From a virus: a DNA stretch of 64,000 nt. The translations under genes were made by a program, and so were the position numbers. The stretch lies in the IMG/VR virus record IMGVR_UViG_3300042402_004628, positions 6,831 to 70,830 of that record; one strand, written 5' to 3'. Position 1 is the first letter of the stretch. Every line of letters starts with the position of its first letter. This document shows, piece by piece, positions 14,031 to 46,664 of this stretch. Under the pieces are notes generated by a model. It was given only the letters and a program-made list of their open reading frames with translations, made no database searches and had not been told where the DNA came from.

Positions 14031-14124
14031 ATACTGCTATTTTCTTTTAATGTGCAAGTTTATATAAAACAAAGTTATCCACACTTGTGATGTGGATAAC
14101 ATTATTTGTTTATGTGGTTAAAGG

Positions 14125-14646
14125 TTATCCGAAGATAACCTTTTCCCCACACTTGATATTCTCAATACCCTCAACCTTGATAGTACGGATAACAATATCA
14201 TTATCCAAACCTTGATTGATTGCCTTGCTTGGCTTTTGTTTGAACTGCTTGATAACCTCAACTTGTTCAGCGTTTGCCTCAACCCCGTCAACGAAGTATT
14301 TAAGCGTTTTAGAAGTGTTACAAGCGAACTTTAAGTACTCACACGATAGGTCGCTTTTCTTTGCTACGATAGAGCCGTTAAAGCCGTCATTTACGGGCGT
14401 AAACCAATTTTCTTTGGCTACGAAGTCAGCCTCTTTACCCTCACGAATACGGGCGTTATTCACCATATTTTGATAGTTAGCGTTTAACAACATATTGTAG
14501 TCAACTAACTTGGTGATAACGGCACTACGCAAAGGGTTGCCCGTCTTTAACATTTTTTGTTCAACCACTGCTAATACTTGGGCGAACTTTGCACTGCCTC
14601 CGTCATTGATAAGGCTTGCGATTACTTGTGATTTTTTGTTTTGCAT
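14125..14646 (-). CDS. hypothetical protein, paralog A of a duplicated family
   Basis: ~50% identical over full length to the 24502-25017 protein (shared NDGGSA, KTGNPLR, REGKEADF, YFVDG.EA.AE.VE.IK.FK blocks). Confidence 0.65.
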   Translation of the reverse strand: MQNKKSQVIASLINDGGSAKFAQVLAVVEQKMLKTGNPLRSAVITKLVDYNMLLNANYQNMVNNARIREGKEADFVAKENWFTPVNDGFNGSIVAKKSDLSCEYLKFACNTSKTLKYFVDGVEANAEQVEVIKQFKQKPSKAINQGLDNDIVIRTIKVEGIENIKCGEKVIFG

Positions 14647-14670
14647 ATCTGTTTGTTTTGATTTGATGAT

Positions 14671-14702
14671 ACAAATGTAGGTGTAATTTTTTTAACCCGC
14701 AA
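14671..14702 (-). promoter_or_regulatory. cassette promoter (TTTG-N20-TAnnTTTG) for paralog A
   Basis: TTTGCGGGTTAAAAAAATTACACCTACATTTG. Confidence 0.6.
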
Positions 14703-14835
14703 ATTTTAACGCAAATTTTTTTATCTTTTTTTTTGTTTAACTTTTCGGGCAAAACATTAAACACAAAAAGTATCGTGTAGGTTGGAGTATACTCTCCCGA
14801 CTTGTTCAGCCCGCCCGTTGTCTTTAACAACAATA

Positions 14836-14867
14836 CAAAGGTAAATGAAATAAATTTAACTTGCAAA
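14836..14867 (-). promoter_or_regulatory. cassette promoter with no ORF downstream (candidate sRNA unit)
   Basis: Consensus copy; ~135 nt non-coding before promoter 14671-14702. Confidence 0.5.
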
Positions 14868-14981
14868 CTTTAACACAAATTTCTTTGTTTTTTTTTTGAC
14901 TCATTTTAAGCCGTTTTAAGACACTCTAACAACTAAACCATACGAACATATACCTTTGTTCCTTTCGTTTAATCTGAGCAT

Positions 14982-15006
14982 AAAAAAAGGGGCGATTTGC
15001 CCCTTT
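14982..15006 (-). terminator. cassette terminator (one of about 35 similar GGGGA..TCCCC hairpins with a T-run in module B)
   Basis: GGGGCGATTTGCCCC flanked by A7 on + (a T-run on the transcribed strand). Confidence 0.6.
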
Positions 15007-15024
15007 CTTTGTTTCTTGTTTACC

Positions 15025-15258
15025 TTACCAAACCAAAACCGCTGGGTCTTCCGTTTGGGCGATTTGTTCCGCCTTTGTTTTTAACTCGGTCATTTGAGCG
15101 ATTAAAACCTCATAGGTCGGTCTTTGATTTGTTTTGTAACCCAAAATTCGTTTGGCACAATCCCTCGCTGAAATTCGGCTCATTTTCATTCCTGTTTTTT
15201 TCTCGAACTCTAAGCCGCGAAGGCATACTACGATTTGAAAAAGTGATGTTGTTGTCAT
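15025..15258 (-). CDS. hypothetical small protein
   Basis: First ATG after the cassette promoter; the track's extra 'MNYQNKQT' is a promoter/leader read-through artefact; terminator downstream. Confidence 0.55.
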   Translation of the reverse strand: MTTTSLFQIVVCLRGLEFEKKTGMKMSRISARDCAKRILGYKTNQRPTYEVLIAQMTELKTKAEQIAQTEDPAVLVW

Positions 15259-15279
15259 TGTTTGTTTGTTTTGATAGTT

Positions 15280-15311
15280 CAAAGATAAACGAAATAAATT
15301 TAACTTGCAAA
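15280..15311 (-). promoter_or_regulatory. cassette promoter for CDS start 15258
   Basis: TTTGCAAGTTAAATTTATTTCGTTTATCTTTG. Confidence 0.65.
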
Positions 15312-15320
15312 TTTTAACAT

Positions 15321-15347
15321 AAAAAAAAGGGGAATTTCTTCCCCTTT
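15321..15347 (-). terminator. cassette terminator
   Basis: GGGGAATTTCTTCCCC + T8 on the minus strand. Confidence 0.65.
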
Positions 15348-15365
15348 CTTTGTTTCTTGTTTACC

Positions 15366-15506
15366 TTAAAAATTTCTTCCCGAAATTTTATATTTGTCTT
15401 CTTTTGGATTACCCCAAAACCAATTGTTAAGTTTACGAACTATAACTATTGATAGCCAAATGGTAAGAAAAAATATGGGCAATCCGATAATAAAGAAATC
15501 TTTCAT
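15366..15506 (-). CDS. small membrane protein (46 aa)
   Basis: MKDFFIIGLPIFFLTIWLSIVIV... after an inverted-core cassette promoter. Confidence 0.45.
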   Translation of the reverse strand: MKDFFIIGLPIFFLTIWLSIVIVRKLNNWFWGNPKEDKYKISGRNF

Positions 15507-15528
15507 AGGTTTGTTTGTTTTGTTGATA

Positions 15529-15560
15529 TAAAGATAAGTTAAATTTATTTCATTTGCAAG
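15529..15560 (-). promoter_or_regulatory. cassette promoter, inverted-core variant, for CDS start 15506
   Basis: Flanks conserved; central 17-mer present as its reverse complement. Confidence 0.5.
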
Positions 15561-15615
15561 TTTTAACATAAAAAAAGGGGAATTTCTTCCCCTTTGTTTG
15601 CATTAGCACTTTTGT

Positions 15616-15681
15616 TTACATTAGCACAGCCATGATTAACAAAGCACCGCAAAAAAGCGTTAAGACGAATAGAATACTCAT
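15616..15681 (-). CDS. candidate 21-aa hydrophobic micro-peptide MSILFVLTLFCGALLIMAVLM
   Basis: Only ORF between cassette promoter 15704-15735 and the next terminator. Confidence 0.25.
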   Translation of the reverse strand: MSILFVLTLFCGALLIMAVLM

Positions 15682-15703
15682 TGTTTATTTTGATTTGTTG
15701 ATA

Positions 15704-15735
15704 CAAAGATAAGTTAAATTTATTTCATTTGCAAG
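15704..15735 (-). promoter_or_regulatory. cassette promoter, inverted-core variant (micro-ORF or sRNA unit)
   Basis: As above. Confidence 0.5.
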
Positions 15736-15798
15736 TTTTAACATAAAAAAAAGGGAACTTTTTTTGTTCCCTCTCTTTTGATCCACAACCCTATTCTT

Positions 15799-16350
15799 TT
15801 AATATGAACAACCTTTTGATTTAACAAAGGGAATAAAAACCCCGAAGTTTGCACTAACTTGTTTTTGTGTGTTTATATCAACCCTAACCCAACCAACATA
15901 ATAGTTAAGATACAAACCCCCAACCAAAGTGTTTATGTTTTTGCGACAACTTAAAACGCTGAACTCCCCGACACTTGTTTTTGTGTAGTTTGTGTATGTT
16001 TCTCTTTGATTAAAGTTTAACCCTGCGTGAACCCCAACCCGAACTGCGTTATCATTGTTCAACACTTTACCAACCAACAACTTTGTGTTTGTTTCTTTTG
16101 TTGATATGTTTCTAACCTCGTAATTGTTGTATTGTGGGTGTTGTTCGGGTGCAACATAATCATATTGAAACAAAGGTGCTTGTTCCCCTTGTTTAATACA
16201 ACCATAAGAAACTGAACCATAGTAACCCCAATTGTTTGCGTCAACCCCCAGGGTTATATCGTTTAACTTTGTGTTTGTTCCTACCAACATTTGTCCGTTT
16301 GCAACCATTGAAGAAACTCCGAGTGCGATTGAGAAAATTAACTTTTTCAT
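15799..16350 (-). CDS. secreted beta-rich protein (signal peptide; outer-membrane-like)
   Basis: MKKLIFSIALGVSSMVANGQ signal; alternating aromatic/polar pattern. Confidence 0.55.
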   Translation of the reverse strand: MKKLIFSIALGVSSMVANGQMLVGTNTKLNDITLGVDANNWGYYGSVSYGCIKQGEQAPLFQYDYVAPEQHPQYNNYEVRNISTKETNTKLLVGKVLNNDNAVRVGVHAGLNFNQRETYTNYTKTSVGEFSVLSCRKNINTLVGGLYLNYYVGWVRVDINTQKQVSANFGVFIPFVKSKGCSY

Positions 16351-16374
16351 TTGTTTTGTTTGATTTGATAACAC

Positions 16375-16405
16375 AAAGATATGTTAAATTTATTTCATTT
16401 GCAAA
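16375..16405 (-). promoter_or_regulatory. cassette promoter, inverted-core variant, for CDS start 16350
   Basis: As above. Confidence 0.5.
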
Positions 16406-16524
16406 TTTTAACATAAAAAAAGGGGACTTTTTTGTCCCCCTTTTTTGTTCGGTTAATCTAACTTGTTGCTGACAAACGAACCGATAGCAACAAGAATTAA
16501 AGCTATTAATAGTCCCATAGTTTT

Positions 16525-16737
16525 TTATATGTTATTTGTTTGACAAAACCTATCAAAATAGGCTTCTTCTTGGGCTTGAACATAACGAGATTCATCCGTT
16601 ATTGTTTCACTTGGGGAATAACTTGGGTGGTACGCTAATTTACGATTTACATCATAAACAATTGTGTCCCCCTTTTGTAGTCTTTTACCACTTGCGGCAC
16701 ATTTGCTACTGAATTTGGCTACGATTATTTTTAACAT
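16525..16737 (-). CDS. hypothetical small protein
   Basis: Cassette promoter + first ATG (MLKIIVAKF...). Confidence 0.5.
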   Translation of the reverse strand: MLKIIVAKFSSKCAASGKRLQKGDTIVYDVNRKLAYHPSYSPSETITDESRYVQAQEEAYFDRFCQTNNI

Positions 16738-16758
16738 TGTTTGTTTGTTTTGATAGTT

Positions 16759-16790
16759 CAAAGATAAACGAAATAAATTTAACTTGCAAA
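16759..16790 (-). promoter_or_regulatory. cassette promoter for start 16737
   Basis: Consensus copy. Confidence 0.65.
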
Positions 16791-16851
16791 TTTTAACATA
16801 AAAAAAGGGTAAATTTCTTTACCCCCTTTTCAAACATTATGAACAACAAAT

Positions 16852-17079
16852 TTATTTTATCTTTTCCGCGAAATAGTTTACAACATCGGGAATGTGTTTT
16901 TTGTAGTACGGCTGATTTTCCATGCACCACTTTTTAACCTCTTCTTTTGTTGTGAAACCTTTGTTACCCCAACTTGAAGCGTTTGATTGAATTTGATTGA
17001 ATGTTGGCTCCAAGTCGTTGATGAAGTCGCGAACTGTCCAACCCTCCCAAATGTGTTTGTCTAAATTTACTTTTGCCAT
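16852..17079 (-). CDS. hypothetical small protein
   Basis: Cassette promoter + first ATG (MAKVNLDKHIWEGW...). Confidence 0.5.
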   Translation of the reverse strand: MAKVNLDKHIWEGWTVRDFINDLEPTFNQIQSNASSWGNKGFTTKEEVKKWCMENQPYYKKHIPDVVNYFAEKIK

Positions 17080-17100
17080 TGTTTGTTTGATTTGTTGATG

Positions 17101-17132
17101 CAAAGATAAATGAAATAAATTTAACTTGCAAA
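17101..17132 (-). promoter_or_regulatory. cassette promoter for start 17079
   Basis: Consensus copy; abuts a terminator. Confidence 0.65.
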
Positions 17133-17133
17133 T

Positions 17134-17157
17134 AAAAAGGGGAATTTCTTCCCCTTT
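17134..17157 (-). terminator. cassette terminator
   Basis: GGGGAATTTCTTCCCC. Confidence 0.6.
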
Positions 17158-17163
17158 CTTTTT

Positions 17164-17352
17164 TTAGTTATAAGCATCGCAAGTGTGGTGCTTGTGTCTT
17201 TCAGGTTTAATCGGTGCATAGTGTGTTTTGTACGCATCGCACTGAACATACTTTGTGCGTTTTTTATGTTTCTTTAACTTGATACCATCGTTTGCAAAAC
17301 TTGTTCCCGTTGCCATAACTGAAACCAACAATAAAATAAATAACTTTTTCAT
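17164..17352 (-). CDS. small secreted His/Lys-rich protein
   Basis: Signal peptide MKKLFILLLVSVMATGTSFA; 62 aa. Confidence 0.5.
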   Translation of the reverse strand: MKKLFILLLVSVMATGTSFANDGIKLKKHKKRTKYVQCDAYKTHYAPIKPERHKHHTCDAYN

Positions 17353-17465
17353 AGGGTTTGTTTTTGATTATGATGTAAAAGTATATAGATTAAATTTAAT
17401 GTGCAAATTTTTTGCAAAAAAAAAGGAAGAAATTTCTTTCTTCCAATTTTCGTATCAAATCAAAC

Positions 17466-17843
17466 TTAATCTTTCGTTACTTGCATTGTCTTTTCAAGCA
17501 ACAATATTCGTGGTACAATGTACTCAACATATTCGGGTGTAAGTTGTTTGTTGTATATCTCCATAACAAAATCAACCGAAGGTGTTGCACCATAGAATGT
17601 TCCCAGCAAAACATTTGTTTCTTTGTGTCTTATCTCGGTGTAACTTTCCTTTGTGGTTTTCGCCACTTTAATATCAAAGACACAACAAAATTCGGGGTCG
17701 GACTGCAAAGCGTTTAGTTTGGCTATATCCGTTTCGTTTGTGTAGTGAACCTCCAAAACAAGTTTGGGCTCTTTCGGGTTTGTACTCGCTTTAACTCCAA
17801 CAAAGGTAGTTAAGCAAATGAGTGTTAAAAGTATTTGTTTCAT
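17466..17843 (-). CDS. secreted hypothetical protein
   Basis: Signal peptide MKQILLTLICLTTFVGVKAS; leaderless start 4 nt after the -7 element. Confidence 0.55.
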   Translation of the reverse strand: MKQILLTLICLTTFVGVKASTNPKEPKLVLEVHYTNETDIAKLNALQSDPEFCCVFDIKVAKTTKESYTEIRHKETNVLLGTFYGATPSVDFVMEIYNKQLTPEYVEYIVPRILLLEKTMQVTKD

Positions 17844-17847
17844 ACTA

Positions 17848-17879
17848 CAAATATAAACATTTTATTTTTAATATGCAAA
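17848..17879 (-). promoter_or_regulatory. cassette promoter (leaderless) for start 17843
   Basis: TTTGCATATTAAAAATAAAATGTTTATATTTG. Confidence 0.6.
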
Positions 17880-18056
17880 TTAAACTCTCCCCTCAATGAT
17901 TGCCGCGAACCAAAGTGATGCGTAAAGAAACGCAGACATAAAAATCATAAAGGCGACTGAACCATAAAACTCTTTCGGATCTTCCTTGCGAAAATCATTC
18001 AGCGTGATGAACATTTCTTTAATATCTTTCATTGTTTGTTTGTTTTTGTTGATACA

Positions 18057-18088
18057 AAGATAAGTGAAATAAATTTAACTTGCAAATT
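18057..18088 (-). promoter_or_regulatory. cassette promoter for the frameshifted small ORF 17880-18033
   Basis: Consensus copy. Confidence 0.6.
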
Positions 18089-18259
18089 TTAATTCAAAAA
18101 AAGGGGAAATTTCTTTCCCCAATTAAATGCATTTTGCCTTTTTCTGTTTATTGACGGATTACAAAAGACAAACGTCATCCGTTCTCACCCACCTTATAAA
18201 TCCTTCCCGTGCACGAAACAAGAAACTGGGGCGGGATTGTTTCTACTTGTTATTTAATA

Positions 18260-18291
18260 CAAAGATAAACGAAATAAATTTAATGTGCAAA
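18260..18291 (-). promoter_or_regulatory. cassette promoter with no ORF downstream (candidate sRNA unit 18115-18255)
   Basis: Consensus copy; terminator 18100-18122. Confidence 0.5.
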
Positions 18292-18295
18292 TTTT

Positions 18296-18493
18296 TTACC
18301 AAGTGAAATCATTTTTATTCGCATTCAAAGAAAGGAATAAAATGAATAGAAACAATAAACCTGTTCCGAAGAAGAATGCAAACTCTTCGTTCTTGATGTA
18401 ACCCTTTGATTGCAGGGCAAGTCCAACGCTTACTCCAATGGTTATCAAACCAAGGATTGAAAGCACGAATGGGATAACTTTAACTTTTTTCAT
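18296..18493 (-). CDS. two-TM membrane mini-protein
   Basis: MKKVKVIPFVLSILGLITIGVSVGLAL...; track 'MQVKFISFIF' prefix removed. Confidence 0.5.
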   Translation of the reverse strand: MKKVKVIPFVLSILGLITIGVSVGLALQSKGYIKNEEFAFFFGTGLLFLFILFLSLNANKNDFTW

Positions 18494-18513
18494 ATTTTTT
18501 TGTTTTGATAGTT

Positions 18514-18545
18514 CAAAGATAAACGAAATAAATTTAACTTGCAAA
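18514..18545 (-). promoter_or_regulatory. cassette promoter for start 18493
   Basis: Consensus copy. Confidence 0.65.
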
Positions 18546-18677
18546 CTTTTGTTTAAGTTTTTTTCGGTTATATGTTTTACCCGAAGGTTTGCTCCTTGTT
18601 ATCATATTCCTACGAATGATTTGAGCAATGTGTCTTTCTGACAAACCTTGTTTCCAATCTTGTGTTTCGTTTTTCAT
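18534..18677 (-). CDS. candidate small basic protein (47 aa)
   Basis: ATG right after promoter 18682-18713; its stop lies inside the next promoter (QKFAS*). Confidence 0.3.
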   Translation of the reverse strand: MKNETQDWKQGLSERHIAQIIRRNMITRSKPSGKTYNRKKLKQKFAS

Positions 18678-18681
18678 AACA

Positions 18682-18713
18682 CAAAGATAAATGAAATAAA
18701 TTTAATGTGCAAA
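18682..18713 (-). promoter_or_regulatory. cassette promoter for start 18677
   Basis: Consensus copy. Confidence 0.6.
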
Positions 18714-18715
18714 TT

Positions 18716-19057
18716 TTATTCTGCAAAATTATCTTTACCACATTCAGGACAAACTTTTTCCTCATACAAAGTATGGTCTTGTGGATTATGTTCGTTGTCA
18801 ACCATTACCGATTTCAACTCATCCTTACCACCAATCCAACCACAATTTTCGCAATAAAGGTCGTATTCAATTTCAATAACCTCATCAAAAATTTCCTTGT
18901 ATTCAGTAACCAATTCTTTATCGGTGAAATTCGCATACCCTTTCATCCCGTATTCAAATATACTGGCAACATAACTATTGTCACCTCGTTCGTGTTCCGA
19001 TATGATTGTGTTGATGTCGTTATCTACCAACTTGTCTATGATTTCCTGTCTTTTCAT
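18716..19057 (-). CDS. Zn-ribbon protein
   Basis: C-terminal CENCGW...CPECGK pair of CxxC. Confidence 0.55.
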   Translation of the reverse strand: MKRQEIIDKLVDNDINTIISEHERGDNSYVASIFEYGMKGYANFTDKELVTEYKEIFDEVIEIEYDLYCENCGWIGGKDELKSVMVDNEHNPQDHTLYEEKVCPECGKDNFAE

Positions 19058-19139
19058 AACTTAAAAGTTTTTCTTATATTGTACTCATCGCCAACCTTGT
19101 TTAACTATTACGTTCTTTCTACCTTGCTTTCGCCATATT

Positions 19140-19250
19140 TTAGTTATATCGTTGTTTACAAATCACCCAAATGCTATAAAGAATAAGTGGTGAAAAAAGA
19201 ATTAATTGCCCCAAACAAACCATTCTTTGTCTTGCTGTTAATCTTTTCAT
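19140..19250 (-). CDS. candidate small membrane protein (36 aa)
   Basis: Leaderless ATG abutting promoter 19254-19286; hydrophobic core. Confidence 0.3.
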   Translation of the reverse strand: MKRLTARQRMVCLGQLILFSPLILYSIWVICKQRYN

Positions 19251-19253
19251 AGT

Positions 19254-19286
19254 TTAAAGATAAGTTAAATAAATTTAACTTGCAAA
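19254..19286 (-). promoter_or_regulatory. cassette promoter for start 19250 and the Zn-ribbon gene
   Basis: Consensus copy. Confidence 0.6.
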
Positions 19287-19429
19287 CTTTGTTTCAATTT
19301 TTTTATCCCCAACAAAGTTATACCCAGAGTTAAACCACCATAGGGCCAAACGGATTGACCAGTAAATGCTTCGTTTTTGTTTCCTTCCATTCAGATAGCA
19401 TTCCCACGCTTTCCGAATTCTAAACTTGT

Positions 19430-19648
19430 TTATTCGCATAATTCAACCTCAATGATTTCACAATAGTTTTCCAACTCGTCTAACGGAATTCTACCATAGT
19501 TCGTTGATGAATAGTAACCTTGAAACTCGTAACGCTTCTTCCATTCAGTTAAGGCGTTCTTTGCTTCCTCAACACTATTGTAAGTGTCGCTGAAATGAAT
19601 GCTAAACCCATCGGGACTTAACACATCGTATTGCTTGTTTGATTTCAT
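19430..19648 (-). CDS. hypothetical small protein
   Basis: Cassette promoter 19654-19684 upstream. Confidence 0.5.
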   Translation of the reverse strand: MKSNKQYDVLSPDGFSIHFSDTYNSVEEAKNALTEWKKRYEFQGYYSSTNYGRIPLDELENYCEIIEVELCE

Positions 19649-19653
19649 AGTTC

Positions 19654-19684
19654 AAAGATAAGTGAAATAAATTTAACTTGCAAA
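19654..19684 (-). promoter_or_regulatory. cassette promoter for start 19648
   Basis: Consensus copy. Confidence 0.65.
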
Positions 19685-19693
19685 TTTTAATAC

Positions 19694-19722
19694 AAAAAAA
19701 AGGGGCAGATTTCTCCGCCCAC
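19694..19722 (-). terminator. cassette terminator
   Basis: GGGGCAGATTTCTCCGCCC. Confidence 0.6.
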
Positions 19723-19751
19723 CTTTTTCAAATATGAAAACAAATCAAGTT

Positions 19752-20126: not shown

Positions 20127-20148
20127 ATCGTTTTGTTTTTTGATACAG

Positions 20149-40940: not shown

Positions 40941-40944
40941 TCTT

Positions 40945-41172
40945 ATGGCGATAAAAATCATTTACTACTCGGAGGTTATAGATAACTGGGGTAGAACAGA
41001 AAGTTCAATGAAAGGTGATATCATCTTCGCGGCCCTGAACAATGTTGAGGACTGGACTGACGATATGATGTTCGAGGGTGATGACGGTCGCAAGTATTCA
41101 ATAGATGAGCTTGCAGGTAAAGAAGTTTGTGTACCAGACATCGGGATATTCACCGTACCAGAAGAAGAATAA
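40945..41172 (+). CDS. hypothetical small protein
   Basis: ORF track; terminator 41175-41205. Confidence 0.45.
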   Translation: MAIKIIYYSEVIDNWGRTESSMKGDIIFAALNNVEDWTDDMMFEGDDGRKYSIDELAGKEVCVPDIGIFTVPEEE

Positions 41173-41229
41173 TTAACGGGGCTTAAAAGCCCCTTTATTT
41201 TTTTATCTGGGACGTTATATTTATCATGG

Positions 41230-41712
41230 ATGGTGAAGTCCCAGATTTTAAATGAGAGATCTTTTGATATAACAGACGGTGAACGATATTTAATTGTCGT
41301 GATCACCCCAGATAGATCGTACTCAGTTTTCACCAGAAAGTACCAGAGCAAACCAGTTGTCTCTGTGGAATTCAAAGAAGCAAAACTTTATAAGGAGCTG
41401 AAGACAGCTCAGAATGTTGTGAAGGAAATCTTCCAGAACAATGAACACTACCAGGAATCTGTAATAAAGATATTCCAGGTGAAGGATCTATTCGAACCCA
41501 GATATTTTGTACAGTATATTAAAAAAGCTTACATGAATTCTCCTGAGCTTAAGTGTTACATCGACTGGTACGTGATCGGCGAGAACCAGGTTGATACTTA
41601 TCTGGATTACAGCGAAGCTCAAAAACATCTGGACAAATACAAACGCGATCTACTTGAATTCTATTACAGCCAGATCATGAACATCAGGAGCTTCGACTTA
41701 AAAAAAATATAA
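41230..41712 (+). CDS. hypothetical protein (in a compositionally distinct block)
   Basis: No cassette promoter; higher GC and different codon usage. Confidence 0.45.
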   Translation: MVKSQILNERSFDITDGERYLIVVITPDRSYSVFTRKYQSKPVVSVEFKEAKLYKELKTAQNVVKEIFQNNEHYQESVIKIFQVKDLFEPRYFVQYIKKAYMNSPELKCYIDWYVIGENQVDTYLDYSEAQKHLDKYKRDLLEFYYSQIMNIRSFDLKKI

Positions 41713-41768
41713 AAAAAAACGGCTCCATTTCTGGAACCGTCTCTTCACCACTAAATCAAAAACAAAAA

Positions 41769-42035
41769 TCAATACTGGTAGTATGTGTATTCAATTGTGT
41801 CCCCCACCCTGTAACGGGCATGTTGAGGATCAACTGTAACTGGAGCTGTGCTGTCCCAGAATTCATATCGGTAGCGCTTCTTGTAATTCAGTGTTGTTGG
41901 ATCGTACTGTTCGATCGTGTCAACTTTCTTAATCACATGTGGCACCACATGAATTGACTTCGGTGGTCTCTGGACACACCCTGTCACCAGGACAGTGAAT
42001 ACAAATATTAGTTTACGCACCTTTGGTAAATACAT
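41769..42035 (-). CDS. lipoprotein
   Basis: MYLPKVRKLIFVFTVLVTGC lipobox. Confidence 0.45.
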   Translation of the reverse strand: MYLPKVRKLIFVFTVLVTGCVQRPPKSIHVVPHVIKKVDTIEQYDPTTLNYKKRYRYEFWDSTAPVTVDPQHARYRVGDTIEYTYYQY

Positions 42036-42246
42036 CTGGGTTTTCAAAATCAGTTTCAGTATCCAGAAACATGAATGAATCCTCCAACTCCTCATCGGTG
42101 AGTTTAACATCTTCCGACAAAGAATTCAGAAAGTCCATTGCTTCCCGTTTGCTGTTGAAATACTTGTAGTCTGTGTTGTCCTCATTCATAAGGTACTCCA
42201 AACCATTTAACGATATGCCCTCAATGGGTCTTCCAATTATTATCAT
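42013..42246 (-). CDS. hypothetical small acidic protein
   Basis: Promoter 42249-42280 (minus). Confidence 0.45.
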   Translation of the reverse strand: MIIIGRPIEGISLNGLEYLMNEDNTDYKYFNSKREAMDFLNSLSEDVKLTDEELEDSFMFLDTETDFENPDVFTKGA

Positions 42247-42248
42247 AT

Positions 42249-42280
42249 GACAAAGGTAATTTAAATTTATTTAATATGCA
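42249..42280 (-). promoter_or_regulatory. minus-strand cassette promoter for start 42246
   Basis: -7 TACCTTTG. Confidence 0.5.
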
Positions 42281-42324
42281 AGAAACTGGGGAAGTTTTTT
42301 TCTCCCCCAGTTAATTTTATTACA

Positions 42325-43170
42325 TTATTCCCAAGGTGTATCAAAGTTATCGAATGGGTTTTCTGGGAAGCAAGAGTTCTCATCATTCCATTCTTCTTCC
42401 GAAATTACATTTCCGTCCTCACCAACATAAACTCTTTGTTCAACATTGTAGTTATATACAACGCCATCCAAAACATATTCTGGTTCACCCTCCGCTAACA
42501 TAAGTTCACCATCCTCGCTGTAAGCACAACCCGCGAACCAGTTTCCAGTTTCCATAAACACCAGTTTGAAGTTCAAGTTCGGAAACATTTTGATAACTTT
42601 TCCCAACCAGTTGATTGGTGGCGACCAGGCGGAGTTGAAGTTAATTGTAATATAGTTTTCGTTATCTGTATCGAAACCCATTTCCTCTGACGAGCAATCC
42701 CACTTTGTTCCCCAGTTCATAACATTCCAGTCGTACCAGTTGTCAGTCCCATACTCTTCAATAAGAGCCTCTCGCTTCTCTTCTGTACCATTGGCACATT
42801 CAATTAGTTCTGGAATTTCAATTGGTATCTTTGCTTCATTCAATTGGTTGTTGATGAAGTCCCTGTCGGTTTTGTCTGTGGTCTCCAGAAGTTTTTTCTC
42901 CAGATCAGCGATCAACTCTTGTTGTTTCTCGATACGATTTTTTGCGTGGTTCACATCCCACTCGTTCACCCATTCACAATCACGAGGTGGTGATATGGTT
43001 CTGGAAAGTGGTTCTGGTGTCGGTAAGTAGTTCGACATTCTCCAGACAAGTTCTGTTTCACCTGTTTTGCTGTAACGCACAGGTTCTTCGGTAATTCCCA
43101 TTGCAAGGAATTGTTTGAATTCTTTGGTATCACCCGATACCTCTAAACGATTTTCGCACCAGTTTGGCAT
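42325..43170 (-). CDS. hypothetical protein starting MPNWCENRL (possibly DUF1281-like)
   Basis: Start moved to the first ATG after promoter 43196-43227; N-terminal MPNWC motif recalled from DUF1281-type proteins (low certainty). Confidence 0.45.
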   Translation of the reverse strand: MPNWCENRLEVSGDTKEFKQFLAMGITEEPVRYSKTGETELVWRMSNYLPTPEPLSRTISPPRDCEWVNEWDVNHAKNRIEKQQELIADLEKKLLETTDKTDRDFINNQLNEAKIPIEIPELIECANGTEEKREALIEEYGTDNWYDWNVMNWGTKWDCSSEEMGFDTDNENYITINFNSAWSPPINWLGKVIKMFPNLNFKLVFMETGNWFAGCAYSEDGELMLAEGEPEYVLDGVVYNYNVEQRVYVGEDGNVISEEEWNDENSCFPENPFDNFDTPWE

Positions 43171-43195
43171 AGTATATTGTTTTTGATTTCGAGAG

Positions 43196-43227
43196 CAAAT
43201 ATACACCATATATTTTTAACTCGCAAA
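43196..43227 (-). promoter_or_regulatory. minus-strand cassette promoter for start 43170
   Basis: TTTGCGAGTTAAAAATATATGGTGTATATTTG. Confidence 0.55.
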
Positions 43228-43257
43228 CTTTATCACAAAAAACTTTTTTCATTTTTA

Positions 43258-43289
43258 TTTGCACATTAAATTTATTGCACTTATCTTTG
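43258..43289 (+). promoter_or_regulatory. cassette promoter for start 43313
   Basis: Consensus. Confidence 0.65.
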
Positions 43290-43312
43290 TGTCGAAATCA
43301 AAAATAAAAATC

Positions 43313-44056
43313 ATGTTTAATCTAGGGTACACGTACAAGAAGCCTACCACACTGTTTGGTACGCAGAATGCAAAGACAAAGAAAGGTGAAAAACTGGGGT
43401 ATACAACCTATATCCTGTATATGTCACCAGAAAAACAAAACACGCTTGGCAAGAACATTTGCCCGAAAGCCACAGCAGGCTGTTCGAAGTCATGTCTCTT
43501 CACAGCGGGTCGTGGCAAGTTTAGCAATGTCATGAAAGGTCGTCTGAATAAGACTGAATACTTTCTTCGTGACAAGGTGAACTTCATGGACGATGTTGTT
43601 AAGGAAATTAAAAAGGGTATTAAAAAACATGGTGCGGGTGCAATGTGCGTTCGTCTCAATGGTACCTCTGATATTCCTTACGAGAACATTCCAGTGGGTG
43701 GTTTTAAAAATGTCATGGAAATGTTTCCTGATGTGCAATTTTACGATTACACAAAGATCTATTCAAGGTTGACAAAGCAATTGCCTGCGAACTATCACCT
43801 TACCTTTTCCAGGGCGGAGACAGAGGACAACCAACGCGAAGCGGACAAAGCACTCGCACTTGGTTTCAATGTCGCTGTTGTTTTCGCTGTTAAGGACGAG
43901 ACAGAACTTCCCGCTGAATACAACAATGCAAAGGTTATCAATGGTGACGAGCACGATCTTACTTTCTTACATGGCAATGGTGTTGTCGTGGGGTTGAAAG
44001 CAAAGGGTGAAGCAAAGAAAGATGATACAGGTTTCGTAGTAAGGGGTTGTAACTAA
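43313..44056 (+). CDS. hypothetical protein (248 aa)
   Basis: MFNLGYTYKKPTT...; promoter 43258-43289; terminator 44041-44072. Confidence 0.55.
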   Translation: MFNLGYTYKKPTTLFGTQNAKTKKGEKLGYTTYILYMSPEKQNTLGKNICPKATAGCSKSCLFTAGRGKFSNVMKGRLNKTEYFLRDKVNFMDDVVKEIKKGIKKHGAGAMCVRLNGTSDIPYENIPVGGFKNVMEMFPDVQFYDYTKIYSRLTKQLPANYHLTFSRAETEDNQREADKALALGFNVAVVFAVKDETELPAEYNNAKVINGDEHDLTFLHGNGVVVGLKAKGEAKKDDTGFVVRGCN

Positions 44057-44072
44057 CCCCTTATTTTTTTTT
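44041..44072 (+). terminator. intrinsic terminator
   Basis: AAGGGGTTGTAACTAACCCCTT + T9. Confidence 0.65.
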
Positions 44073-44081
44073 GCATTCAGA

Positions 44082-44113
44082 CTTGCAAGTTAAATTAAAT
44101 TCATATACCTTTG
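44082..44113 (+). promoter_or_regulatory. cassette promoter for start 44118
   Basis: CTTGCAAGTTAAATTAAATTCATATACCTTTG. Confidence 0.55.
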
Positions 44114-44117
44114 TCAT

Positions 44118-44435
44118 ATGAAAGCAAAACAAAACAATTATCCAAAGTTTATCATCCGTTGGAACGGTCGATTCCATAAGGGTCTGATAACCGAAGACTT
44201 CGTCTTCTACTGTAACTACCAGGAAGGAGATGATAACGGCAATGTTGAGATGTATCGCAGGGTTGAATCTAACCCGCATGACAGGGACAACAGCGGGCTA
44301 GAATTGGTATCGAACAATTACTTTGCTAGCGTTGGTCTCTTCGAAGCGCTCGAGGCGGGCGTCTGGGAATACATCTCACCAACCATGAAACTGAATTATA
44401 AACTAGCAAAAGAAGCGGGACAATTCGATGAGTAA
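44118..44435 (+). CDS. hypothetical protein
   Basis: Promoter 44082-44113. Confidence 0.5.
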   Translation: MKAKQNNYPKFIIRWNGRFHKGLITEDFVFYCNYQEGDDNGNVEMYRRVESNPHDRDNSGLELVSNNYFASVGLFEALEAGVWEYISPTMKLNYKLAKEAGQFDE

Positions 44436-44739
44436 GAAAGAAAGAAAAATATACGAGACCTCTGTAATATACAGAGGGTACCAGACATTTAAACTGTGCT
44501 GGGCCACCTCATATGCTGAAGCTGCCAGGATCTTGGATGTGGCCCCTAGTTACCTTAAGAATTACGGCCTGTCTTATAAACGCGATCGGGATTTTGACTT
44601 CGAGGGTTGTTATGGGTATATCGATTCAGGTGAGATCATCTTTGGTGAACCAGGACGACCTGATCTGATGAGAAAACTTATGCCATGGGCGGAGTTGACG
44701 GAGATCGTTGATACTTATATTAAAGAGAAATACGAATGA
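44428..44739 (+). CDS. hypothetical protein
   Basis: Overlapping start/stop chain; elevated GC. Confidence 0.45.
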   Translation: MSKKERKIYETSVIYRGYQTFKLCWATSYAEAARILDVAPSYLKNYGLSYKRDRDFDFEGCYGYIDSGEIIFGEPGRPDLMRKLMPWAELTEIVDTYIKEKYE

Positions 44740-45101
44740 GACCAGAATTCAAGATATACAGGAATCTACACAGAGACTGTTTCAGTGTGATGAGATGGAA
44801 CCAGGAGAAGAGAGGGTACCGTCTGTATCAGCATGTCAAGGATCTAGAAGCTTACGGCGTAACGTTCAGGGTATCTCAGGCTGGACGGGCCAGGGTTCTG
44901 GAGACGAAGCAAAAGAATGTACATGCATTCGTATGCTGCCAAGAATTCAAGCTTGCTTCTGGGGCCGCGAACCTGGGTGAGGAGATCTACTACAATCCAT
45001 ACAAGATGGAAACGTTCAGGATCAAGAGCTCGGACGAATCGATTCTGAATGCAGATTCGGTTATCATGACGAATAATAAATGTTATTTAAATGTGATCTG
45101 A
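44736..45101 (+). CDS. hypothetical protein
   Basis: ATGA overlap. Confidence 0.45.
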   Translation: MRPEFKIYRNLHRDCFSVMRWNQEKRGYRLYQHVKDLEAYGVTFRVSQAGRARVLETKQKNVHAFVCCQEFKLASGAANLGEEIYYNPYKMETFRIKSSDESILNADSVIMTNNKCYLNVI

Positions 45102-45105
45102 ATTC

Positions 45106-45657
45106 ATGGGCGGAGATGAGAGAAGCGCGATAGAAGTGATCGCTGAATTCACGTCACCATTTGAGGATTCACTTAACGTGTTAATCCTAGGTGATCATAT
45201 AGATGATCTTGAGGCTGCTGAAGTAAAGGCGGCGTTCGATCGAACCAGGAATGAATTCCTGAGTCTGCCATCGGTGGACGAGGAGAAGATGGCCCCGATC
45301 AAATATATTAAAATTAATACATCCGAATTTTTCAGGGGGAAGATCAGTAATAAAATTAAGAAGGAACCCTGTGTTGTATATCTGGATCACGAGCTCAGCA
45401 AAAATGCTTTGAACATCCTCACCAATAATAACAGTGAGGTGGATGATCTGGAGGAAATGCTTCTGGAGAAATATCTTTTCGGGATCAACCAGGAAAAATT
45501 TATTCTGGATCTCACCAGCTGTCTGGATGAAAGGATCGAACTTCTCATGAGTGCCATGGACGCCAGAGCTGGGGAATTCAATTATGTTCTGGTGGAAAAG
45601 TATCTGGCGATCTGGATATATGCGCTTGACGAATTCGCCCCATTTCAGTTCGATTAA
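45106..45657 (+). CDS. hypothetical acidic protein
   Basis: 183 aa. Confidence 0.45.
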   Translation: MGGDERSAIEVIAEFTSPFEDSLNVLILGDHIDDLEAAEVKAAFDRTRNEFLSLPSVDEEKMAPIKYIKINTSEFFRGKISNKIKKEPCVVYLDHELSKNALNILTNNNSEVDDLEEMLLEKYLFGINQEKFILDLTSCLDERIELLMSAMDARAGEFNYVLVEKYLAIWIYALDEFAPFQFD

Positions 45658-45684
45658 AAAAAAGATAAAAAAAGTTTCAAAAAA

Positions 45685-45716
45685 ACTTGCATAATAAAAA
45701 AAGTTGTATTACATTT
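45685..45716 (+). promoter_or_regulatory. cassette promoter with no ORF downstream; leads into an inverted repeat and the GAATTCA repeat array
   Basis: CTTGCATAATAAAAAAAGTTGTATTACATTTG. Confidence 0.5.
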
Positions 45717-45735
45717 GTAGTCCTTAAGAGTTCAG

Positions 45736-45794
45736 GCCTGGGAGGCAACCCTTTCTCTCTGTTTTGTTTTTGATTTCAAAAAGTCCTCCCAGGT
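45736..45794 (+). other. long-range inverted repeat (CCTGGGAGG ... CCTCCCAGG) downstream of the ORF-less promoter
   Basis: 9-bp arms about 40 nt apart. Confidence 0.5.
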
Positions 45795-45803
45795 TCTGTT
45801 CTC

Positions 45804-45942
45804 GAATTCAAGTTTAAGTTTCTACTAGAATTCAACCCCGTATAATTTTTAGAATTCATATTGCTGGATCTTCCAGAATTCATATCCGTAACTTTTTTAG
45901 AATTCATATATAAATAAAAAAGGTGAACCCTTTTAGAATTCA
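45804..45942. repeat. array of six (T)AGAATTCA repeats (iteron-like), the first three on a 24-bp register
   Basis: GAATTCA at about 45804, 45828, 45852, 45886, 45900, 45936. Confidence 0.65.
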
Positions 45943-45957
45943 CCTTTCAGTTTTTTT
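45920..45957 (+). terminator. hairpin + T-run closing the ORF-less transcript from promoter 45685
   Basis: GGTGAACCCTTTTAGAATTCACC ... T7. Confidence 0.5.
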
Positions 45958-45967
45958 ATGTATTCAC

Positions 45968-46225
45968 TTATTCGTCATCCGCTTCTTTCTTGCGTCTGGT
46001 CTTTCTGGTTGGTAAACCTCTTTTCTCACGTATCCTGTCCCTGAGTTCCATCACCTTCAGGATGGCTGTGATCACCGCGATGAAAAGACCGAGGATCACA
46101 CCGATCAATTGTAGGAGATCTGTTGCACTCATGGTGATTGATAACATTGATGATAATATTCCGTATTCAGGTTTTTTAGTTAGTGTATCCGTTAATTGGG
46201 TGATGAGTGTGTCCTTCATTTTCAA
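45968..46225 (-). CDS. holin-like small membrane protein (one TM plus a highly charged C-terminus)
   Basis: 'LLQLIGVILGLFIAVITAILKV' then RDRIREKRGLPTRKTRRKKEADDE. Confidence 0.4.
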   Translation of the reverse strand: MKMKDTLITQLTDTLTKKPEYGILSSMLSITMSATDLLQLIGVILGLFIAVITAILKVMELRDRIREKRGLPTRKTRRKKEADDE

Positions 46226-46321
46226 TACTGTTTTTGTTTATTTTTTTGTATACAAATAAATAGTATGAATGAATAGAAAACGCCCGTTGTTAACTCGAAT
46301 ACATTATTTTTTTTTAAAAAA

Positions 46322-46353
46322 ATTTGCACATTAAATTTTAATGTGTTATCTTT
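46322..46353 (+). promoter_or_regulatory. cassette promoter for start 46371
   Basis: Consensus. Confidence 0.6.
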
Positions 46354-46370
46354 GATTAAATTAAAATAAT

Positions 46371-46664
46371 ATGAATGCAATAAATACAGCCTATACATTG
46401 GGTTTGGTCGCCATGTATTTTATCATGGGCGGAGAATTCACATTCTGGGTGTTCATGACCTCGGTCTTGATCGCACTGATTCCACTGACAACTTCGAACC
46501 TGTTATTCGCGACCCCGATCGTGGTTCTGATCTGGTGTTTCTTTTTCACCAGCAGTACAGTTTACGATTCCGACTTCGCGTGGTTATGCATCCTGTATGC
46601 ACCCTTCCATTACACCTCATTCATATCCCATGTCATAGACGCCATCGAGGGCATTTTCGATTAA
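46371..46664 (+). CDS. multi-pass membrane protein
   Basis: Three hydrophobic helices; promoter 46322-46353. Confidence 0.5.
   Translation: MNAINTAYTLGLVAMYFIMGGEFTFWVFMTSVLIALIPLTTSNLLFATPIVVLIWCFFFTSSTVYDSDFAWLCILYAPFHYTSFISHVIDAIEGIFD

Follow-up and report, generated by a model that had tools for sequence, protein, structure and literature searches.

A divergent array of small-gene cassettes headed by Bacteroidota-type promoter repeats in a large phage genome

The early regions of phage T4 and the host-takeover module of SPO1 contain clusters of strong early promoters placed before small, non-essential genes, many of which act on the host, and these clusters are presumed to be expressed at once by the unmodified host RNA polymerase. 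T4-type phages also carry promoter-stem-loop elements (PeSLs), composed of an AT-rich stretch, a stem-loop, an early sigma-70-type promoter, a Shine-Dalgarno sequence and an ATG, conserved copies of which cluster in the hyperplastic regions of the genome (PMC2839356, PMC4122927). PeSLs have been tied to insertions, deletions, replacements and displacements between close phages, and the mini-circles associated with them have been detected by inverse PCR (PMC2839356, PMC4122927). In Bacteroidota, the moraphages, freshwater jumbo phages with genomes of 200-307 kb, show inversions and variable-content islands whose dynamics are unexplored (PMC12619734). Here we analyse a stretch of 64,000 nucleotides of a virus genome (IMG/VR record IMGVR_UViG_3300042402_004628, positions 6,831 to 70,830; referred to as the window), half of which is occupied by small genes preceded by copies of one Bacteroidota-type promoter repeat. 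This is a hyperplastic accessory-gene region made of about 60 small expression cassettes. We think it likely that these cassettes are strongly and independently expressed by the host RNA polymerase, probably right after infection, and that the repeat units at their heads double as portable homology.

The original prediction for this region had claimed about 60 near-identical promoter copies in 32 kb, and the number holds. The generic pattern TTTG-N20-TAnnTTTG is found exactly 52 times in the window against 0.7 occurrences expected from shuffled sequences, and the 32-mer offered as consensus in that prediction has 20 copies with up to 3 mismatches where 0 are expected. A slightly looser expression finds 62 copies, 61 of them within the array, and these 61 were used to build a position weight matrix (PWM). 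Scanning both strands with this matrix yields 64 copies of a 32-nt unit between 14672 and 46354 (minus strand, 44; plus strand, 20), and none in shuffled sequence. The median spacing between units is 441 bp, and the generic pattern is denser in the array, at 1.82 per kb, than elsewhere in the window (0.22 per kb). The term near-identical was too strong for the unit as a whole, whose mean pairwise identity over 32 nt is 79%, but the positions that were not forced by the search are strongly conserved.

The arrangement in two divergent arms is also as described, apart from three exceptional units. Minus-strand copies span 14672-32825, and this minus arm contains one plus-strand unit, at 24336. 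Plus-strand copies span 32859-46354, where the 19 plus-strand units of the plus arm enclose an embedded minus-strand block with the units at 42251 and 43196; the block is kept in relatives. The arms part between the back-to-back promoters 32825 (-) and 32859 (+), with an A8/T7 palindrome inside the intervening stretch (32826-32858), and both GC and AT skew flip sign at this divergence point, at ~32 kb. As predicted, the copies stand in front of small genes: an open reading frame (ORF) of at least 20 amino acids (aa) that starts with ATG is found within 45 nt downstream of 60 of the 64 copies, and four units have no ORF behind them.

Promoters of this phylum have been described in Flavobacterium johnsoniae, in which six positions of the -7 box TAnnTTTG are nearly invariant, the G of the box lies at -5, the two middle positions are virtually G-free, AT-rich motifs are centred at -18 and -28, and transcription begins 4-5 nt past the box (PMC6847099). 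Numbered in the same way, with the G of the -7 box at -5, the units of the array carry TTAAA at -28 to -24 and ATT at -20 to -18, and G is absent from both middle positions of the box (0/61 copies). Inside the unit, A or G occupies position 6, a purine position 8 and T position 9; only A or T is found at positions 14-16, and A17, T18-19, C21, A22, Y23 and T24 are conserved; an A-rich stretch lies directly upstream and a T-run farther up. Since the array units show these features of F. johnsoniae host promoters, their extended consensus reads as an idealised host promoter. At the level of sequence they bear the marks of promoters for the Bacteroidota primary sigma factor (sigma-ABfr), namely a -33 TTTG and a -7 TAnnTTTG ~20 nt apart, the restriction of the box to TAHHTTTG, and AT-richness around -28 and -18, and the assignment made in the original prediction thus agrees with the published description (PMC6847099).

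The distance from the -7 box to the ATG falls into two classes, exactly 4 nt in 12 units, called leaderless below, and 16-29 nt in 46 units. The first class would yield leaderless mRNAs, and its fixed distance is consistent with a transcription start 4-5 nt downstream of the box. Leaders of the second class are made of 60% A, 20% C and 3% G, and a Shine-Dalgarno-like motif is present in 1 of the 46. Such A/C-rich leaders fit the way in which Bacteroidota normally translate, that is, without Shine-Dalgarno sequences (PMC6847099). Leaderless status is not fixed, as several ORFs that are leaderless in the window have homologs elsewhere with leaders; regulatory part and ORF are therefore separable. 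At their upstream side, promoters and coding sequences overlap. Eight promoters provide the ORF before them with its stop codon, the TAA within their GTTAAA (offset -11; promoters 18514, 20149, 23298 and 27068 on the minus strand and 33089, 34248, 36137 and 37317 on the plus strand), at promoter 23047 (-) the preceding stop lies inside the promoter at offset -15, and at ~14 further junctions the stop codon comes 1-8 nt ahead of the promoter.

To compare the array with those of other genomes, related contigs were oriented like the window, and promoters and homologs of 73 window cargo proteins (the products of the ORFs behind the units) were mapped onto them. Relatives at ~75% DNA identity have 1.3-2.3 units per kb, one promoter per gene and an unchanged extended consensus. 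A strict form of the extended motif has 0 matches in a one-genome-per-species collection covering 185,579 bacterial and archaeal species, and a looser form matches 48 bacterial loci with one copy each, ~42 of them in Bacteroidota and with no genus enriched. Multi-copy arrays in viral and metagenome collections are confined to contigs that share cargo genes with the window, plus a more distant one, L160 (IMG/VR contig 3300026549_000030, 242 kb). This contig has ~10 same-strand promoters in 10 kb (positions 600-9300) whose consensus, TTTGGATATTAAAtTTATT..CTATCTTTG, differs from that of the window, and it encodes a DUF932 homolog that is 35% identical. Because L160 has an array of its own, the architecture is not restricted to the clade of the window.

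Comparison of related genomes had been proposed as a check of cassette-level shuffling, and it revealed gain, loss, relocation, replacement and inversion of cassettes, with junctions concentrated in the hairpin-promoter-leader unit. One insertion is at the inner end of the plus arm, where a 41-bp direct repeat that includes a promoter, 40/41 identical, brackets ORF 32909-33100. The left copy (32849-32890, plus strand) aligns over 41 bp with the right copy (33080-33120, plus strand), which includes the promoter unit 33089-33120, and the bracketed ORF is absent in relatives A and B. Clean single-cassette differences were taken from close relatives that are 92-100% identical elsewhere, and the edges of these losses and replacements lie at 15351/15509, 15783/16351, 16522/16740, 18722/19256 and 23902/24250. 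In contig L012, ORF 15799-16350 is missing and the junction passes from the flank of promoter P16405 to the P15735 unit within the hairpin. The segment 15352-15508 is missing in L012 and L027 with ~94 bp of overlap at the junction, and the cassette of ORF 16525-16737 is missing in L053. Two segments are replaced: 18723-19255 in L053 and L047, from 9 nt upstream of one promoter into the -7 box of the next, and 23903-24249 in L053, from within one promoter to the leader of the next. In L059, the P31229 unit is doubled around a 175-bp insert. Cassette differences in L022 were dropped, as this contig contains 100-N scaffolding runs (2687-2786 and 4144-4243) that start in a promoter copy and at a gene junction.

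Cassettes also change place and arm. The cassette of ORF 23570-23869 sits ~5 kb away in A, B, L005, L013 and L015, between the homologs of ORFs 27960-28637 and 28786-29613, and its homology runs promoter-to-promoter (23925-23538). In A and B, the homologs of ORFs 33939-34259 and 31909-32241 are on the opposite arm and in the opposite orientation, and in lineage C ORFs 32303-32773 and 33110-33424 have exchanged arms. Two nested inversions connect the three arrangements: inverting [32303 | 33110] in the window order gives the C order, and inverting [31909, 33110 | 32303] in C gives the A/B order. Genes stay co-oriented with their arm in every arrangement. Finally, the arrays are mosaics, in which adjacent cassettes range from 44 to 97% amino-acid identity to relatives. 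The cassette of ORF 21028-21432 has 90-100% DNA identity to relative A from the stop codon through the promoter, with neighbours at 45-80%, and the drop in identity falls at the hairpin and promoter edges. Even where overall identity to a relative reaches 95-99%, individual cassettes drop to 80-87%. Altogether, the sampled loci hold 96 families of promoter-proximal ORFs, 38 of which are missing from the window.

These observations suggest the following scheme. Each cassette would open with a near-ideal host primary-sigma promoter, continue with an A/C-rich leader or a leaderless start and one or two ORFs, and, in about one third of cases, close with an intrinsic terminator. As every cassette has such a promoter, host RNA polymerase would read each small gene separately and strongly with no need of a phage factor, most likely immediately after entry of the DNA. 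The hairpin-promoter-leader units (~60-110 bp) recur every ~440 bp and so could serve as portable homology. Exchange between direct repeats would delete, duplicate, insert or relocate single cassettes, and a circle with one promoter copy would, on integrating, produce the promoter-ORF-promoter arrangement observed. Exchange in flanking units would swap one allele for a diverged one, and exchange between inverted units of the two arms would invert the centre and shift genes across arms with arm co-orientation kept.

Several results weigh against the part of this scheme that gives the units a role in exchange, and they lend themselves to a simpler account, in which the units are strong promoters only, cassettes are moved by ordinary illegitimate or microhomology recombination, and selection keeps the intact units. 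Taking as unit the segment from -50 to +62 around the promoter 5' end, which covers 22% of the region and should thus receive 22% of breaks, we find in units 13 of the 19 internal homology-block ends of close relatives (p = 2e-5) and 71 of the 105 of diverged relatives (p = 3e-23). Nearly every gene boundary is a promoter unit, however, so this enrichment is inseparable from an enrichment at gene boundaries, and alignments run into any promoter copy, which draws block ends to unit edges. Some changes avoid the units, such as a 191-bp ORF insertion at a repeated ATGAG (33690) and breakpoints inside ORF 30843-31193, and indels at start codons or inside ORFs are what the promoters-only account would lead one to expect. 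Promoter identity is 79% within the window, 79% for random window-relative pairs and 84% for orthologous pairs; since identity within the genome equals that between genomes, frequent gene conversion, or homogenisation, among copies is not evident, and conservation of the unit looks like selection for a shared optimum, which needs no recombination role. The hairpin that the original prediction had attached to every copy is not a constant part of it, as a terminator-like hairpin lies just upstream (up to 75 nt) of only 19 to ~25 of the 64 units, about one third, and in the remaining units the promoter is abutted or overlapped by the stop codon before it. No recombinase gene is seen in the ~85 kb of genome sequence that was read (the window and 10 kb on each side). 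All the same, the simpler account is in our opinion unlikely. A 41-bp promoter duplication that exactly brackets an inserted gene is expected from homologous exchange and not from random breakage, which would not be expected either to leave deletion junctions with 40-100 bp of ambiguous overlap in the hairpin-promoter repeat. Promoter duplication and ambiguous deletion-junction overlaps are stronger evidence than the block-end statistics. Inversions that keep arm co-orientation fit exchange between inverted repeats, neighbouring promoters resemble each other slightly more than random pairs do (0.81 vs 0.79, p = 0.003), and the equivalent repeats of T4-type phages have been shown by experiment to recombine (PMC2839356).

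Other explanations concern the nature of the unit itself. It could represent a phage-specific promoter class used by a phage sigma factor, RNA polymerase or activator, with the conserved spacer reflecting that factor and the genes being perhaps middle or late. Conservation does span the whole spacer, the other promoter-like sites in the window are of a different class (TTTGG...ATTAAAAA), and the more distant phage has its own consensus variant, but we regard this as very unlikely: each conserved block matches a described host-promoter feature (the -33 TTTG, the AT blocks at -28 and -18, and TAHHTTTG), the loose motif is present in Bacteroidota chromosomes, and neither a sigma factor nor an RNA polymerase gene is seen in the ~85 kb. 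An integron-like system, with a site-specific recombinase encoded elsewhere that recognises the unit or the hairpin, would account for the very high conservation of the unit, the promoter-ORF-promoter signature of insertion and the finding of cassettes at new sites and in both orientations. It appears highly improbable given that neither the window nor the 10 kb flanking it on each side shows an integrase or recombinase domain, that the repeat is a 5' promoter on every cassette rather than an attC-like 3' element, and that junctions lie variously in the hairpin, the core and the leader, a better fit to homology than to a fixed crossover. Barely credible, finally, is the idea that the repeats are bound by an architectural, partition or replication protein and resemble promoters incidentally. 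The orientation of the units is strictly that of the downstream ORF, with only two ATG spacings, both promoter boxes match perfectly, and the strand switch of the units coincides with that of the genes, and against this stand only the ParB-like protein encoded in the array, the ParB_N-NUDIX protein that adjoins it and the phased A/T tracts of the units. CRISPR-like and transposon-like readings were rejected as well: the repeats are promoters that point into the ORFs they precede, what would be "spacers" are genes, and no integrase is seen in the ~85 kb.

Half of the 73 cargo proteins are no longer than about 104 aa (the median length), and 49 of them measure 120 aa or less. Crude sequence rules find hydrophobic segments in 6 and CxxC...CxxC motifs in 3, and a few begin, by eye, like signal peptides. 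Searches of ~40 of these proteins against Pfam and PHROG returned mostly nothing or families of unknown function, and gene tables contributed further DUF families only. The matches include a SprT-like match of ORF 32303-32773, a ParB-like match of ORF 28786-29613 (PHROG, E 8e-14), matches to DUF932, DUF1281_C, GP88, L5 gp82 and DUF6915, and weak ones to DUF4241 and DUF3846. The account of the cargo in the original prediction, small proteins mostly without a family and with ParB-like, SprT-like and DUF932 members among them, was thus broadly right, and a role of the cargo in host takeover or anti-defence is, by analogy, a reasonable guess.

The individual units are given below with, in brackets, the PWM score followed by the coordinates and length of the ORF behind. 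The outermost unit of the minus arm, 14672-14703 (33.7; 14125-14646, 173 aa), has its ATG 25 nt downstream. Inwards of it lie the ORF-less unit 14836-14867 (47.7), unit 15280-15311 (46.9; 15025-15258, 77 aa) and three units of a CAAATGAAATAAATTTAAC subtype, 15529-15560 (33.3; 15366-15506, 46 aa), 15704-15735 (38.2; 15616-15681, 21 aa) and 16374-16405 (35.6; 15799-16350, 183 aa). They are followed by 16759-16790 (46.9; 16525-16737, 70 aa), 17101-17132 (48.8; 16852-17079, 75 aa), 17376-17407 (26.1; 17164-17352, 62 aa), the leaderless 17848-17879 (29.2; 17466-17843, 125 aa), 18055-18086 (49.9; 17880-18032, 50 aa), a second ORF-less unit at 18260-18291 (46.3), and 18514-18545 (46.9; 18296-18493, 65 aa). 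Three leaderless units come in succession, 18682-18713 (48.2; 18534-18677, 47 aa), 19255-19286 (41.2; 19140-19250, 36 aa, then ORF 18716-19057) and 19653-19684 (49.9; 19430-19648, 72 aa), the last of which has leaders on its homologs of other lineages. Beyond them are 20149-20180 (46.4; 19752-20126, 124 aa), 20573-20604 (29.6; 20342-20545, 67 aa), which was found by the weight matrix only, 20960-20991 (43.3; 20619-20939, 106 aa) and 21456-21487 (47.1; 21028-21432, 134 aa).

Farther in, the ORF of unit 21924-21955 (48.8; 21544-21900, 118 aa) is replaced in L026, and after 22259-22290 (48.8; 21963-22238, 91 aa) an extra cassette is present in A and B at 22640-22671 (42.8; 22379-22618, 79 aa). 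Unit 23047-23078 (43.7; 22676-23026, 116 aa) precedes two leaderless ones, 23298-23329 (43.1; 23063-23293, 76 aa) and 23538-23569 (46.3; 23318-23533, 71 aa), and next to these is the unit of the relocated cassette, 23889-23920 (40.0; 23570-23869, 99 aa). Unit 24264-24295 (44.3; 23923-24240, 105 aa) adjoins the ORF-less unit 24336-24367 (39.6), which is on the plus strand, opposite to its arm. The ORF of 25040-25071 (46.5; 24502-25017, 171 aa) is a paralog of ORF 14125-14646. The series continues with 25431-25462 (43.8; 25094-25411, 105 aa), the leaderless 26006-26037 (47.0; 25885-26001, 38 aa), 26310-26341 (44.5; 26039-26287, 82 aa), 27068-27099 (47.7; 26388-27044, 218 aa), 27527-27558 (44.7; 27088-27504, 138 aa, DUF6915), 27921-27952 (40.2; 27628-27897, 89 aa) and 28659-28690 (45.2; 27960-28637, 225 aa). 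The unit of the ParB-like ORF, 29643-29674 (33.7; 28786-29613, 275 aa), is another that only the weight matrix detects. Toward the divergence point we find 30413-30444 (42.9; 29786-30391, 201 aa), the leaderless 31198-31229 (48.5; 30843-31193, 116 aa, then ORFs 30608-30841 and 30447-30611), 31826-31857 (44.9; 31287-31802, 171 aa), 32269-32300 (45.9; 31909-32241, 110 aa) and, innermost, 32794-32825 (42.5; 32303-32773, 156 aa, SprT-like).

The plus arm begins with 32859-32890 (31.4; 32909-33100, 63 aa) and the leaderless 33089-33120 inside the right direct-repeat copy, with ORF 33125-33424. Unit 33427-33458 (44.3; 33478-33693, 71 aa, then ORF 33690-33884) is followed by the leaderless 33903-33934 (41.3; 33939-34259, 106 aa), whose homolog in A and B has a leader, and by 34248-34279 (43.0; 34289-34591, 100 aa), 34689-34720 (44.2; 34739-34954, 71 aa), 35156-35187 (38.5; 35209-35493, 94 aa), 35754-35785 (39.0; 35804-36148, 114 aa) and 36137-36168 (39.2; 36194-36817, 207 aa). 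At 37021-37052 (42.0; 37074-37328, 84 aa) contig L034 is 82% identical, with neighbours at 90-99%. Next are 37317-37348 (45.5; 37368-37982, 204 aa, with the weak DUF4241 match), 38043-38074 (45.7; 38097-38675, 192 aa), 38678-38709 (49.3; 38732-39349, 205 aa), 39400-39431 (42.6; 39457-40269, 270 aa, DUF932) and 40316-40347 (44.3), a unit with three ORFs (40371-40940, 40945-41172 and 41230-41712). The embedded block holds the leaderless minus-strand unit 42251-42282 (33.7; 42013-42246, 77 aa) and the minus-strand unit 43196-43227 (28.9; 42325-43170, 281 aa, DUF1281_C), the latter back to back with 43258-43289 on the plus strand (47.6; 43313-44056, 247 aa, GP88 family). The leaderless unit 44082-44113 (39.3) has four ORFs behind it (44118-44435, 44428-44739, 44736-45101 and 45106-45657). 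The arm ends with a weak ORF-less unit, 45686-45717 (15.5), at whose equivalent spot a -7 box is also present in L031 and L048, and with the last unit, 46323-46354 (25.2; 46371-46664, 97 aa).

Terminator-like hairpins are enriched, with 53 against 12.8 expected and, in a second count, 23 against 11.3. The hairpin is itself repeated, as a 23-mer, AAGGGGAAGAAATTCCCCTTTTT, in 5 exact and 3 near copies. Since about two thirds of the units are without terminator, the array consists mostly of promoter-ORF units with occasional terminators. On the minus strand, hairpins were found at 14985-15007 (with a T-run), at 15323-15350 and 15572-15595, both of repeat family GGGGAAGAAATTCCCC, at 15747-15777, the crossover zone of the L012 deletion, and at 16417-16445, 16802-16829, 17134-17156 (repeat family), 17425-17444, 18103-18120, 19703-19720, 20993-21015 (repeat family), 21499-21530 and 22332-22352. 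Farther along the same strand they occur at 26343-26365 and 28748-28770, two near copies of the repeat family, and at 29730-29755, 31243-31268 and 31869-31896, this last again of the repeat family. A bidirectional terminator at 24458-24485 is common to ORF 24502-25017 and a candidate RNA described below, and a hairpin at 35500-35521 has T-runs on both strands. The plus-strand hairpins of the plus arm are at 36838-36866, 37999-38027, 40291-40313 (a near copy of the repeat family) and 44038-44065. Where the arm meets the embedded block there is one on the minus strand, at 41713-41746, and at the end of the arm the hairpin 45918-45948 serves as terminator of the minus-strand ORF 45968-46219.

The four ORF-less units stand before candidate non-coding RNAs. 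RNA1 (14704-14835, minus strand) may alternatively be a structured long leader of ORF 14125-14646; its region has a conserved core, GAGRGTATACTCCAACCTACACGATACTTTTT, and compensatory changes in 5 of 18 predicted base pairs across three lineages. RNA2 (24368-24490, plus strand) is 97.5% identical in A and B, where the flanking genes are at 75-90%, and the position of its promoter, 24336 (+), beside the homolog of ORF 24502-25017 is kept in A, B, C and L053. The RNA1 and RNA2 regions each adjoin one of two ORFs with paralogous products, 14125-14646 and 24502-25017, and neither region matches an Rfam family. RNA3 (18100-18259, minus strand), between unit 18260-18291 and the hairpin 18103-18120, its probable 3' end, is conserved in close relatives only. 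Folding of single sequences gives weak z-scores for all four regions (-0.7 to -1.8), so that only comparative data lend support to the candidates.

RNA4 is a candidate hairpin at 45718-45800 (plus strand), downstream of the weak unit 45686-45717. Its stem covaries in three lineages (CCTGGGAGG/CCTCCCAGG, CCTGGGG/CCCCAGG and CCCTGGGAC/GTCCCAGGG), and its loop is complementary to the A/C-rich leader common to the cassette mRNAs. Against 47 leaders the mean predicted duplex energy is -12.3 kcal/mol, compared with -6.9 for shuffles (z = -6.6), and 1.3% of random genomic 79-mers score as low. The hairpins of L031 and L048, matched with their own leaders, give z = -3.7 and -7.1. RNA4 may be a trans-acting anti-leader RNA or, more trivially, a relic of an inverted leader. 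A bolder combination would couple two functions, recombinase-free exchange via the promoter with its inversions, and a leader "address" on ~50 mRNAs read by the 45718-45800 RNA, which would tune the cassette set in trans or shut it off altogether; we judge it quite unlikely. After the hairpin and before the bidirectional terminator come six (T)AGAATTCA repeats in the same orientation (45803-45945, plus strand), 17-40 nt apart, and the hairpin 45918-45948 probably also ends the transcript of RNA4 and these repeats. In all three lineages, 6 to ~10 copies of (A)GAATTCA follow the RNA4 hairpin in the same orientation; the diverged relatives (L031 from ~10370, and L048 on the minus strand) have ~10, with unconserved sequence between them. 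This array could be a set of protein-binding sites, either on DNA (iteron- or centromere-like) or on RNA. At the other end of the region, the outer end of the minus arm, an inverted perfect pair of DnaA-box-like 9-mers, TTATCCACA / TGTGGATAA, is found at 14075-14099, and others at 21018, 22306 and 61242; the 5 in the window against 0.9 expected are a marginal excess, reached by 1 of 100 shuffles.

The window belongs to a phage genome of which longer assemblies exist. A 298,814-bp NCBI metagenome-assembly contig, JBFDGW010002670.1, is 100% identical over window positions 29457-50269 (window position x corresponds to position x + 171,667 of that record), as is a second such contig, and an independent JGI assembly of the phage gave a contig of 298,717 bp. 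IMG/VR classes related pieces as viral, and the sample names of related contigs are freshwater-lake-like. Genes typical of large phages lie in the flanks of the array, encoding a UvrD-type helicase, a ParB_N-NUDIX protein, a dNMP kinase, a NAMPT-like enzyme, ribose-phosphate pyrophosphokinase, adenylosuccinate synthetase, DHFR, SmpB, an SPFH-domain protein and a tyrosinase. The ~85 kb read show no virion or replication hallmark genes, and the dNMP-kinase gene is the sole T4-like hint. With its ~299 kb, this gene content and the IMG/VR classification, the virus looks like a jumbo phage, and its host is probably a freshwater member of Bacteroidota. No tRNA genes are found in the window, and Rfam gives no family at the gathering score, a permissive E-value adding only weak matches that are probably due to chance. 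Megablast of window 30000-46000 against GenBank phages gave no match, and the helicase, the adenylosuccinate synthetase and the GP88-family protein, used as protein queries, retrieved distant phages only, at 21-47% identity; no cultured relative is thus apparent.

Some genes of the flanks are odd for a phage, namely those of the tyrosinase-domain protein, the NAMPT/NAPRTase-family enzyme, adenylosuccinate synthetase, the ParB_N-NUDIX fusion and a class II aminoacyl-tRNA synthetase-like fragment. The genes in question lie at 55092-56543 (-), 62621-63991 (-), 58918-59943 (-), 9783-11639 (+) and 8195-9040 (+). The ribose-phosphate pyrophosphokinase gene, a companion of the NAMPT/NAPRTase-family gene, lies just beyond the window edge. 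Promoter-like sites outside the array are of another class, TTTGG..ATTAAAAA...TAnnTTTG, and each heads a multi-gene block (1715-1762, 53326-53357, 57316-57347 and 62320-62351). Given this different class, two or more versions of the host-type promoter appear to be in use in the phage.

The region may be useful beyond this phage. Roughly 64 natural near-consensus variants of a Bacteroidota promoter, each with a leader or a leaderless start, could serve as ready parts in a phylum for which genetic tools are scarce, and the ~96 small-protein families are candidates for host-takeover or anti-defence functions. One phage protein is indexed in 123 blocks of a metagenome collection, and with an array this clean and dense, present in so many public metagenomes, exchange rates and junctions become measurable in natural populations. 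Such rates bear on the turnover of orphan-gene islands in phages. The repeats break short-read assemblies, so public assemblies may under-report or mis-join cassette content.

Among the described phages of Bacteroidota, the variable islands of moraphages offer a parallel, since the ~299 kb size, the freshwater-type sample names and the Bacteroidota signal of the window phage all fit, and the moraphage lineage is a plausible home for it. No promoter arrays, however, are described for moraphages (PMC12619734), and the sample accession of one related contig, SAMN11649477, is not found in the same paper. Like the early clusters of T4 and SPO1, the array consists of many small genes of unknown function, each with a strong host-type promoter, but its copies are far more numerous and regular and its promoter and translation signals are those of Bacteroidota. 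Integrons are also linear series of single-gene cassettes, separated by a conserved repeat and varying in content and order among relatives. In contrast to them, the array has no integrase in the window or in the 10 kb on each side, its repeat is a 5' promoter and not a 3' attC, each cassette carries a promoter of its own, the cassettes form two divergent arms, and junctions vary within the repeat.

The likeness to PeSLs, already pointed out in the original prediction, is apt given the cassette-level rearrangements in relatives. Both are composite repeats centred on an early-type promoter for the host primary sigma factor, with an AT-rich stretch and, in part of the units of the array, a terminator stem-loop upstream, and both stand between the small orphan ORFs of a hyperplastic region, here in 64 copies over 32 kb. 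Related genomes differ in both cases by insertion, deletion, replacement and displacement of single ORFs beside the repeats, and the promoter-ORF-promoter topology is the one expected from integration of a circle. The differences are clear as well. The promoter follows the grammar of Bacteroidota (TTTG / TAnnTTTG) and not that of sigma-70; the units have an A/C-rich leader or none in place of the Shine-Dalgarno sequence; and a stem-loop accompanies only about a third of them. The array is far denser and runs uninterrupted, with 64 units in 32 kb, whereas the PeSL paper highlights a run of six, and it has two divergent arms that trade genes through inversions of the centre. PeSL carriers are T4-type phages with demonstrated mini-circles, whereas the phage of the window is known from sequence alone. 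The finding extends promoter-repeat gene shuffling, so far seen only in T4-type phages of Proteobacteria, to a Bacteroidota jumbo phage, and its occurrence with a host that has a different sigma factor, a different promoter grammar and no Shine-Dalgarno suggests that large virulent phages use this strategy generally. The array operates as PeSLs do; we place it beside that family rather than within it, as a variant of the same type.

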